Positions 49,932-51,433 of a stretch of 64,000 nucleotides of DNA are shown piece by piece (the first letter of the stretch is position 1; every line of letters starts with the position of its first letter). A program made the position numbers and the translations under genes. Origin of the DNA: an uncultured Candidatus Saccharibacteria bacterium (lineage in GTDB: Bacteria; Patescibacteriota; Saccharimonadia; Saccharimonadales; AWTP1-31); assembly GCA_964643545.1 (NCBI GenBank), contig CAZXTE010000001.1, positions 19,101 through 83,100 on the forward strand. Reading direction: 5' to 3'. The notes under the pieces are model-generated. The model saw only the letters and a list, made by a program, of their open reading frames with translations, was not told the origin of the DNA and made no database searches.

Positions 49932-50450
49932 ATGAACGAAAACAATAATCAAACACCAGCAGAAACCGTAGACTACAGTTTCATAACGGATCAACCCACG
50001 GCATCTCCAAAAAAGAAACCTAATAAAATGATCGCCATATTTCTCGGGTTGACGTTGCTCGTTATTTTGGCGGCGGGCTTACTGTTGTTAGTACAGTCCA
50101 AAAAAAGCACAACCAAAAGTAACATCGACGCAGAACAGGTCGTCCGACAACTTTTTGTAGATATGGGGAACGGGGATAATATCGCCGCCCTAAACGCATT
50201 TACGGGGCCAAATAAGCCGGATGCTGCGTACCTTGAGGGCTACTTAATAGCTCCGCTGAAGAATGATTACTTGGTAGATTCATGCACATTTACCTCTTCA
50301 GAAACAAAAGTAGCTAGCTATTACCAGGTCAAGGCATCTTGCCCACAAAAGCAAGCAAGTAACATCAGAATTCGTGTAGACTTTACAGTTATGAGACAAG
50401 AGCTATCATCGAAAATTGTTGCATACTCTCTTGGCGGGGTAGATACGTGA
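49932..50450 (+). CDS. bitopic membrane protein, candidate VirB8-like (NTF2-like ectodomain) component
   Basis: 172 aa. Cytoplasmic N-tail, a TM (MIAIFLGLTLLVILAAGLLLLV) and an ectodomain of about 110 aa beginning AEQVVRQLFVDMGNGDNIAALNAF. First gene of the pilin operon. Confidence 0.45.
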   Translation: MNENNNQTPAETVDYSFITDQPTASPKKKPNKMIAIFLGLTLLVILAAGLLLLVQSKKSTTKSNIDAEQVVRQLFVDMGNGDNIAALNAFTGPNKPDAAYLEGYLIAPLKNDYLVDSCTFTSSETKVASYYQVKASCPQKQASNIRIRVDFTVMRQELSSKIVAYSLGGVDT

Positions 50451-51433
50451 AATTGGTAAAGCGGGTTCACACCGCCGGATTAGTTATCCTATCTGTCGCT
50501 GGTCTACTTAGTGCAACATTATTCGTACATCCAAAATCGGTCCAAGCAGCCGCGCCAATATGCTATGAGCTACTCGGCAGCTCTGGTAATGATGTCCGAG
50601 TGGCTGACTGTAATAATCCCACAGTAGTTACTTTAAGAGACCAAAAGTACCCTGCTGACAAAAAATTTCTTGACGATCACTGTTACCTATATGGTGGATT
50701 TGGATTTTTCATAAAACGAGGTTTAACAGAAGTGCCGCCTGCGAGCGATGCAAATAAGAAATACACCTGTGAGTGGGCAAGAAAAGCGGCGGCTGCAGGT
50801 CAGGCAGCCGCTCCAAAATGTTACTTATTCTCTCGTGCGACGTTGGACGATTACTTTTCATTTAAATTTGCCGCTACAGATATCAAGGAAACTGCGTGCA
50901 CGCAAGAATTAAAGAATTACTACAGGTTTGTTCACAATCCTAAAGAAATAGAAAGCGGGTGGTGCTACCTATTCAGCCAAGATCATAACAACATCCAGAC
51001 ATCATGTGCAGACCTTCTTTCCAATATTGCAACTGCAGATAGTAGCGGAGGCGGGGGCGGCGGCACCTCCAGTTGCGCAAGCGATCCAACGCTTTCTTTC
51101 TGTGTGGACCTGCCGGTTAAGACCAATGATACGTGCGGCGAAGCTGGTAGCGGTACGGAAGTCCAGATATCGATCAATGTGGGATGTGTGGGCAAAGGTA
51201 ATGGCATTCTTGATCTGACCTTTGCGCTCATTCGATTTCTCTCTTATGGTGTGGGCATTGCCATGGTGGCCTCTTTAGTTGTTGCTGGCATACAGTACAG
51301 CTCCTCTAGAGGTGATCCACAGGCTACCAGCAAGGCAATAGGTCGTGCGCAGAGCACTGTTGGGGCGTTACTTCTGTTCTTGTTTATATATGCTATATTG
51401 AACTGGATAATACCCGCAGGACTCTTGAAATGA
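50447..51433 (+). CDS. Cys-rich exported protein ending in a VirB2/TrbC-like pilin hairpin
   Basis: 328 aa with a signal peptide. Two 4-Cys modules (AP.CY...C...CYL(Y/F)...C), a G6 linker and a third 4-Cys segment. Then the hairpin LIRFLSYGVGIAMVASLVVAGIQYSSSRGDPQATSKAIGRAQSTVGALLLFLFIYAILNWII. Confidence 0.6.
   Translation: MKLVKRVHTAGLVILSVAGLLSATLFVHPKSVQAAAPICYELLGSSGNDVRVADCNNPTVVTLRDQKYPADKKFLDDHCYLYGGFGFFIKRGLTEVPPASDANKKYTCEWARKAAAAGQAAAPKCYLFSRATLDDYFSFKFAATDIKETACTQELKNYYRFVHNPKEIESGWCYLFSQDHNNIQTSCADLLSNIATADSSGGGGGGTSSCASDPTLSFCVDLPVKTNDTCGEAGSGTEVQISINVGCVGKGNGILDLTFALIRFLSYGVGIAMVASLVVAGIQYSSSRGDPQATSKAIGRAQSTVGALLLFLFIYAILNWIIPAGLLK

Follow-up and report, generated by a model that had tools for sequence, protein, structure and literature searches.

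An enlarged, cysteine-rich first pilin in the VirB2-like array of a Saccharibacteria type IV secretion locus, a candidate host-contact subunit

A region of six pilin genes belonging to a type IV secretion system (T4SS) has been described in Southlakia epibionticum ML1 (PMC10633639 and PMC12857230), and its pilin genes SEML1_0014-0019 are essential according to transposon sequencing (Tn-seq) (Wang et al. 2023, PMC10633639). Moreover, the T4SSs of Patescibacteria are known to occupy a position close to the replication origin (Quiñonero-Coronel et al. 2025, PMC12102498). Here, we analysed a stretch of 64,000 nucleotides (the window) from an uncultured Candidatus Saccharibacteria bacterium (assembly GCA_964643545.1, contig CAZXTE010000001.1, positions 19,101 to 83,100), in which the first gene of a pilin array encodes a protein of 328 amino acids (aa), hereafter the long pilin, with a large cysteine (Cys)-rich head in front of a pilin hairpin. 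We found no description of such an enlarged, disulfide-rich first pilin in the literature. The survey in PMC12102498 used a cut-off of E < 0.001 for family PF18895; the long pilin, with E = 0.0062, lies above this value and was therefore probably not counted there.

The long pilin gene, its hairpin and its head

Sequence comparison identifies the long pilin as the probable first-position member of a conserved set of six VirB2-like paralogs (PF18895, T4SS_pilin) in a Saccharibacteria T4SS. Hydropathy analysis revealed three hydrophobic segments, a leader (residues 7-30) and two helices (254-283 and 300-328) joined by the basic loop SSSRGDPQATSKAIGRAQ, which has a net charge of +2. This order of leader, two hydrophobic helices and short basic loop is the topology of the PF18895 family, with the leader cleavage placed by eye. 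The VirB2 orientation, with both termini outside and the basic loop in the cytoplasm, is assumed for the long pilin. Its own PF18895 match (residues 268-321, 17 bits) falls below the gathering cut-off of 26.6; all 10 head-bearing homologues match the family at E <= 0.01 (best 1.4e-7), and precomputed PF18895 annotation is attached to the relatives P0004, P0007, P0008, P0011 and P0012. When the long-pilin family was aligned with the five small pilins by hhalign, a probability of 97% (E = 1e-10) was obtained over 62 columns. This alignment and the PF18895 matches establish the homology of the hairpin to the small pilins. An earlier reading of the letters alone, the first-pass annotation, had claimed that the long pilin shares its hairpin with the five downstream pilins, and profile alignment upholds this homology.

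The open reading frame (ORF) of the long pilin is a real, functional gene under purifying selection and not a fusion artefact. Its GTG start overlaps the TGA stop of a 172-aa ORF located upstream. In public assemblies, an identical protein (P0001) is present on three contigs of at most 179 kilobases (kb), and an ortholog with 90% identity and the same architecture is encoded in a Candidatus Saccharibacteria metagenome-assembled genome (locus L001). Between these two genes, the ratio of nonsynonymous to synonymous substitution rates (dN/dS) is 0.07 over the whole gene, which argues for function. A mis-assembly, a frame-fused ORF or a decaying pseudogene is extremely improbable: nothing was found in favour of one, the only peculiarities being a GTG start and a Pfam score under the threshold, whereas the identical protein on several independent contigs, the constrained 90% ortholog and at least eight distant homologues of full length all contradict it. 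The first-pass reading of the architecture, in which the leading gene of the pilin series encodes a hairpin bearing a disulfide-rich head, is borne out by the sequence and profile comparisons.

The long pilin contains 12 Cys (residues 39, 55, 79, 108, 125, 151, 173, 187, 210, 219, 230 and 247), and its Cys content is 3.7%, whereas it is 0.88% across 55 other window ORFs (binomial P = 4e-5). The mature protein is predicted, by eye, to begin at AAPICY, and the A-x-A / A-A-P-x-C-Y junction is kept in its homologues. The Cys motifs quoted by the first-pass annotation were all recovered (AAPICY...DC...HCYLY...TC, followed by AAPKCY...AC...WCYLF...SC), and they delimit two modules, A and B (Table 1). 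When residues 35-262 were compared exhaustively by phmmer with 1.84 billion representative proteins, only 12 relatives appeared, 7 of which have the full-length head, as has the product of locus L005; a word-indexed search started from the head alignment gave no more than 3 proteins. In an alignment of 10 sequences, C39, Y40, C55, C79, Y80 and C108 are invariant, and C125, C173 and C187 nearly so. Plain pairwise alignment of modules A and B was not significant (score 28 versus 24±4 for shuffles). However, profiles of the two modules, built from 9-10 homologues, align with all four Cys in register, with hhalign scores of 31.4 (local) and 29.7 (global). Controls with shuffled columns scored 9.0±2.3 (maximum 19.1) and 2.7±2.1 (maximum 9.8), respectively, and none of 150 reached the observed values. 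The earlier proposal of two modules with one Cys pattern is thus confirmed at the profile level.

AlphaFold2 applied to the head alone, with 10 head homologues, produced a best model with a predicted local distance difference test (pLDDT) score of 81.3 and a predicted template modelling (pTM) score of 0.68, whereas the full-length protein, with a 12-sequence alignment, gave an unusable model (pLDDT 41.7). In the head model, module B is the best-predicted part (pLDDT 84-96). Both modules present the same order of elements, namely beta-hairpin, helix, beta-hairpin, helix. The repeat can alternatively be read as four beta-hairpin-plus-helix units of the form C-[YFW]...C, of which homologues have 2-4. 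All four units place their first Cys in the first strand and their second where the next helix begins, so that sequential disulfides would form (39-55, 79-108, 125-151 and 173-187). The eight head Cys would then form four local bridges, each stapling a beta-hairpin to the start of the following helix. The number of extracellular Cys is even in 27 of 27 family members (range 2-12), and a gene for a VKOR-family protein lies 4.5 kb downstream of the pilin array; both observations support oxidised cysteines. The VKOR protein is likely to be the extracytoplasmic disulfide-forming enzyme of this reduced genome.

The head has no Pfam or NCBIfam match. Comparison with PDB sequence profiles gave nothing better than E = 2, and Foldseek searches with the head model reached at best E = 1.2 against the PDB and E = 1.2 against BFVD. 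The first-pass annotation had named a match of the modules to a known periplasmic enzyme fold as something that would refute its reading; no significant enzyme match appeared in these fold and family searches. Likewise, no homology of the head to VirB5 was detected by Pfam, NCBIfam or PDB fold search. The head is rich in aromatic residues (13% F/W/Y), which is compatible with glycan binding and is not counted as evidence for it.

The two modules are followed, as claimed in the first pass, by a hexaglycine linker (residues 201-206), which is a Gly8 in the 90% ortholog and is replaced by unrelated low-complexity linkers in other homologues. The earlier description of the next part as a third 4-Cys segment stands only as regards the number of Cys: it is not a single segment but a combination of two pairs, a lineage-specific pair and a Cys loop belonging to the pilin class. 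The pair C210 and C219 is confined to the long pilin and its 90% ortholog, whereas C230 and C247 are at least 90% conserved and belong to a Cys loop of the form T-C-G-x-(A/G)-...-S-I-N-V-G-C-x-G-K-G-N-x-I-L-D. The class-defining version of this loop, C-G-x-G-D...S-I-x-I-G-C-x-G-K-G-N, also occurs in the short members of the class. The loop lies 34 residues ahead of the conserved loop glycine, and the matching distance in small pilins 5 and 6 is 35.

Because the linker is flexible and the part behind it resembles a complete short first-position pilin, the N-terminal 200-250 residues might be imagined as a long pro-region that is removed at or near the Gly linker to leave an ordinary small pilin, in the way that the long leaders of VirB2-family propilins such as TraA and VirB2 are processed. 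We find this very hard to accept for a domain of ∼165 aa that is folded and duplicated, keeps eight conserved Cys, is under purifying selection and follows a normal signal peptide of its own; it would be an expensive leader without precedent.

Pilin classes and distribution of the head

The array of the window was compared with six other complete Saccharibacteria arrays (loci L001, L002, L004, L005, L018 and L019), each with six pilin genes. In all six, an enlarged Cys-rich pilin comes first, with lengths of 328 (L001), 301 (L002), 231 (L004), 310 (L005), 262 (L018) and 258 aa (L019). Locus L003 shows the same start of the array, with a first pilin of 270 aa, and is cut off by the contig end. 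The array is divergent from a VirB6-like gene wherever the upstream flank is present (L005 shows the array alone), and the T4SS gene order of the window, including a neighbour like its 1098-aa membrane protein, recurs in L001, L002, L004, L018 and L019. Identity across loci ranges from 36 to 69% per position, whereas within the array it is 23-48%, except for positions 5 and 6 (67%). The six positions correspond to orthologous classes with position-specific motifs, and conservation is highest at positions 5 and 6. Considered with the fact that S. epibionticum requires all six genes, these position classes argue for one fixed hetero-oligomeric assembly and not for a pool of interchangeable variants.

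Within the first-position class, the enlarged head is a minority addition with a patchy distribution, the class being otherwise short. A profile search with the C-terminal 108 aa retrieved 325 proteins, and the best matches with the class Cys loop are only 112-187 aa long; the positional counterpart in S. epibionticum has 132 aa (Wang et al. 2023, PMC10633639). Some relatives carry other Cys-rich heads, with 2-4 C-[YFW]...C units, and others are headless; the C-terminal 100 aa are still alignable in distant relatives in which the head is replaced or absent. The head is exchanged or lacking in relatives that have closer hairpins than some relatives bearing it: the C-termini of P0004, P0009 and P0021 are 59-64% identical to that of the long pilin, yet these proteins lack this head, whereas P0013-15 and P0023, with C-termini only 22-33% identical, possess it. 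In a rough neighbour-joining tree of the hairpins, which has no support values and is weak evidence, proteins with A and B modules are scattered among headless and other-headed ones. A hidden Markov model of the head was run against every ORF of the window and of 19 loci; its sole matches were the long pilin of the window and those of L001 and L005, so that in these sequences the head is always attached to a pilin hairpin. It is restricted to a minority of lineages, all of them uncultured.

The C-terminal pattern YAILNW-IP also finds single pilins of 123-149 aa in L006-L017 (Nanosyncoccus and ruminant-gut Saccharibacteria), with no six-gene array within the fetched flanks. These may be of the type of the lone, non-essential 'pilin' SEML1_0024.

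The head has evolved faster than its anchor. Compared with the ortholog in L001, identity is 84-87% in the head, 98% in the linker and Cys-loop segment and 100% in the hairpin, where 76 codons contain no nonsynonymous change. This, with the replacement or loss of the head in distant relatives, agrees with the expectation of the first-pass annotation that orthologs would vary in the head and not in the hairpin. Positive selection on the head was considered and is unsupported, dN/dS being 0.04-0.05 there, although dS exceeds 1 and is near saturation. The variation of the head arises by relaxed or lineage-specific change and by replacement, without detectable positive selection. Synonymous divergence from L001 (10001-10987, window 50549-51430) is itself uneven, with dS values of 1.4-1.8 (two head modules), 0.78 (linker segment) and 0.22 (hairpin), and of 0.24-0.77 in neighbouring genes. 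Recombination of the head could account for this pattern, as could constraint on codons in the transmembrane (TM) helices.

Heads that are hypervariable or swapped between relatives would suit a variable pilin decorating the shaft of a filament and modulating its surface properties or host range, with no dedicated place at the tip. Antigenic or host-range variation has been put forward for VirB2 arrays, and PMC12102498 has proposed that pilin arrays help adaptation to different host strains. Such a shaft decoration seems unlikely to us: the six positions are ancient, fixed paralog classes, all essential in S. epibionticum, each array has a single headed gene, and close orthologs reveal strong purifying selection on the head.

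Possible roles of the long pilin

We see roughly even chances that the long pilin is a low-copy T4SS pilin that displays its head as a host-contact or specificity module. In the solved pili of the VirB2 type (F-pilus and T-pilus), the pilin exposes its two termini on the outside and turns its loop towards the lumen. With this geometry, the head would be shown on the outside or at the distal end of a pilus or short conduit built by the six pilins. As a 20-kDa head on every subunit is sterically implausible, the long pilin would most likely be a minor subunit, and the more conserved position-5 and position-6 pilins might provide the bulk of the structure. The head could then serve for host contact or specificity, in the manner of the tip protein VirB5 or of modular type 4 pilins. 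In the survey of Patescibacteria, the PrgB-type adhesin was not found, and VirB5 was present only in rare systems of the Gram-negative type (PMC12102498). With neither recognised in this system, a tip or host-contact role becomes plausible, and it is the most economical reading.

A more specific proposal, which we consider rather doubtful, is that the first-position pilin takes over the function of VirB5 in the T4SS of a monoderm: several copies arranged in a small ring would cap the pilus or conduit, a VirB2-type heteropolymer of the other five, and would also nucleate it, and the exchangeable, disulfide-stapled head would set host specificity for docking. If this were true, a disulfide-stapled head of a fold without solved relative would dock an essential T4SS onto the host envelope.

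Several observations weigh against a role in host contact. Most members of the class lack the head, among them that of the cultivated S. epibionticum, where the system is essential, and the head therefore cannot be core to the function of the system. Neither a lectin nor an adhesin fold or motif was found in the head by fold and sequence searches of the PDB and BFVD, and the Foldseek comparison that the first-pass annotation had suggested for such folds was negative in both databases. The low dN/dS of the head offers no sign of positive selection. The head model was built on 10 sequences, only one of five models exceeds a pLDDT of 80 (the remaining four are at 58-72), and the disulfide pairing is not readable from the coordinates. 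Moreover, the first-position hairpin is no better conserved than the others: its mean identity across loci is 44%, compared with 59-69% at positions 5 and 6, and the idea that it is unusually conserved, as might be expected for a tip role, was discarded. Finally, according to the literature, no pilus of PF18895 proteins has been observed in Patescibacteria, and the Pam pili (preprint), the filaments of a Saccharibacterium whose structures have been solved to date, are unrelated. An identity of the window's pilins with Pam pilins was considered and rejected, since the latter have immunoglobulin-like folds and are assembled by donor-strand exchange.

This lack of an observed T4SS pilus in Patescibacteria, like the general absence of pili from monoderm T4SSs in the literature, suits a principal alternative in which the long pilin stays in the membrane. 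Here, the hairpin would merely anchor the head at the cell surface or on the T4SS platform, for example on the VirB6-like protein, and the head would act as a spacer across the wall, as a gate or as a receptor. Two features are consistent with such a component: translational coupling of the gene to that of a bitopic membrane protein, the 172-aa ORF, and conserved motifs (IRFLS, AGIQY and YAILNW-IP) that set the first-position hairpin apart from the other five pilins. In contrast, the clear homology of the hairpin to five co-encoded pilins and the resemblance of the conserved six-gene set to a single assembly argue against it, and a flexible Gly-rich or low-complexity linker fits a displayed domain better than a fixed part of a platform. 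We regard the membrane-resident component as possible and distinctly less probable than a displayed host-contact head.

With a folded, fast-evolving domain at what would be its outward-facing end, the long pilin is a concrete candidate for the host-touching part of an essential but unexplained T4SS. It is also an example of modularity among VirB2-type pilins, a principle documented so far for type 4 pilins. The head can be expressed alone for binding assays, and whether it is present, and of which type, can be compared across genomes with the range of hosts.

Surrounding locus and comparison with known systems

The features of the long pilin and of the locus are listed in Table 1. From the candidate VirB6 onward, the gene order is that of SEML1_0013-0022 of S. 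epibionticum ML1, in which SEML1_0013-0021 constitute an essential region. The 1098-aa membrane protein has no Pfam or NCBIfam match; it is called a candidate VirB6 because it is the positional counterpart of SEML1_0013, for which the supplement of Wang et al. 2023 (PMC10633639) reports a structure match to a TrbL/VirB6 protein (score 0.50). On the 3' side of the pilin array are genes for Hsp20, a ComFC-like phosphoribosyltransferase and tRNA-Ser, and dnaA, dnaN, recF, rnpA and yidC lie 2.5-7 kb past the T4SS operon. This agrees with the origin-proximal position mentioned above, and the locus is the origin-proximal Saccharibacteria T4SS locus described in PMC12102498. The origin neighbourhood, which adjoins the T4SS operon, also includes a jag-like KH/R3H gene.

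Table 1. Coordinates of the long pilin, its parts and other features (position 1 is the first letter of the window)
Feature	Position	Strand	Remarks
Long first-position pilin gene	50447-51433	+	GTG start, 328 aa
Signal peptide, residues 1-34	50447..50548	+	n-region K2/K5/R6, hydrophobic core, V-Q-A before predicted cleavage
Head module A, residues 35-120	50549..50806	+	Cys 39, 55, 79, 108; two C-Y...C units
Head module B, residues 121-200	50807..51046	+	Cys 125, 151, 173, 187; diverged duplicate of A
Hexaglycine linker, residues 201-206	51047..51064	+	Read from sequence
Pre-hairpin segment, residues 207-252	51065..51202	+	C210/C219 pair, then Cys loop C230/C247
VirB2-like pilin hairpin, residues 253-328 and stop	51203..51433	+	TM1 ~254-283, loop SSSRGDPQATSKAIGRAQ, TM2 ~300-328
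Five small T4SS pilins, array positions 2-6	51430..53460	+	129, 106, 135, 136, 142 aa; all pass PF18895 gathering cut-off
Position-2 pilin	51430-51819	+	
Position-3 pilin	51820-52140	+	
172-aa bitopic ORF	49932..50450	+	Stop overlaps GTG of long pilin
Candidate VirB6, 1098-aa polytopic membrane protein	46548..49844	-	Divergent from pilin array
323-aa ORF	45524-46495	-	No family match
T4SS core genes	41602..45471	-	Pfam matches TraG P-loop, AAA_10, PrgI
PrgI/VirB3-like gene	44428-45471	-	Pfam PrgI
TrsD/TraC-like gene	43515-44387	-	Weak TrsD match (E = 1e-5, 25 bits), far below cut-off
VirB4 ATPase	41602-43515	-	NCBIfam conju_CD1110, E = 2e-103, above cut-off
Two very large secreted wall-hydrolase genes	35401-41575	-	820 aa and 1248 aa; in line with T4SS genes
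Origin neighbourhood	28360-34355		jag-like, yidC, rnpA, dnaA, dnaN, recF
FG-GAP repeat protein	26876-28363	+	495 aa
Polysaccharide-synthesis genes	20739-26757		
VKOR-family protein	57957..58700	+	PF07884, E = 9.5e-24; 10 Cys

The product of the 172-aa ORF begins with a cytoplasmic tail that bears a conserved D/N-Y-x-F-I-x-N-Q motif and continues through a single TM helix into an outside domain (∼115 aa, 2 Cys); it matches no Pfam or NCBIfam family. It may be VirB8-like or an assembly partner of the long pilin. The ORF is kept in the same place in L001-L005 and is absent from L018, L019 and S. epibionticum; as L018 and L019 have first pilins of 258-262 aa, it is not a constant companion of the head.

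Of the two wall-hydrolase genes, one encodes GH3 and NlpC/P60 domains (820 aa) and the other a GDSL lipase with a VanY D-Ala-D-Ala carboxypeptidase (1248 aa). These proteins could be substitutes for VirB1 or enzymes attacking the host wall. Elsewhere in the array, the pilins at positions 2 and 3 have no canonical Sec signal peptide, and the same gap is present in L001, L002 and L004. The N-terminus of the position-3 pilin reads M-x-x-x-(I/V)-F-A-Q, and the position-2 pilin of L005 has a full leader and a Ser/Thr-rich extension (198 aa). Outside the T4SS locus, the 495-aa protein with FG-GAP repeats, a possible surface adhesin, adjoins genes of polysaccharide synthesis (glycosyltransferases, a Wzy-like ligase and an ABC-2/Wzt transporter).

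Among known systems, the SEML1_0014-0019 array (PF18895 / PF04956 TrbC/VirB2) shares with the window the C-terminal hairpin, the basic loop, the Sec leader and the Cys loop before TM1, as well as the layout of six genes beside VirB6/VirB3/VirB4-type genes and Hsp20, near dnaA. However, compared with the first pilin of S. epibionticum, that of the window has ∼190 additional residues between the leader and the Cys loop, which comprise the duplicated 8-Cys domain, the Gly6 linker and the extra Cys pair. The likeness to the tip proteins VirB5/TraC concerns only the proposed role, which would be low-copy, distal and host-contacting, with a possible part in pilus nucleation. There is no similarity in sequence or fold: VirB5 is soluble, helical and without a hairpin, whereas here the contact domain would be fused to a pilin.

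PilB and PilC of Streptococcus sanguinis (PMC8179133, PMC9934059) follow a design that the long pilin would share, in which a globular module is grafted onto a polymerising pilin; in PilB and PilC, an adhesion module is carried by a minor subunit of a heteropolymeric pilus in a monoderm bacterium. Their fold and machinery are unrelated (they belong to a type 4 filament), and the module is C-terminal there and N-terminal here. Moreover, the modules of PilB and PilC have known folds (vWA, lectin), whereas the head in the window matches none. Finally, the VirB2 paralogs of Bartonella and Anaplasma are likewise encoded by tandem, divergent VirB2 genes in T4SSs of host interaction. However, those variants are similar in size and thought to be interchangeable, whereas the array described here consists of six fixed classes, one of which is enlarged.

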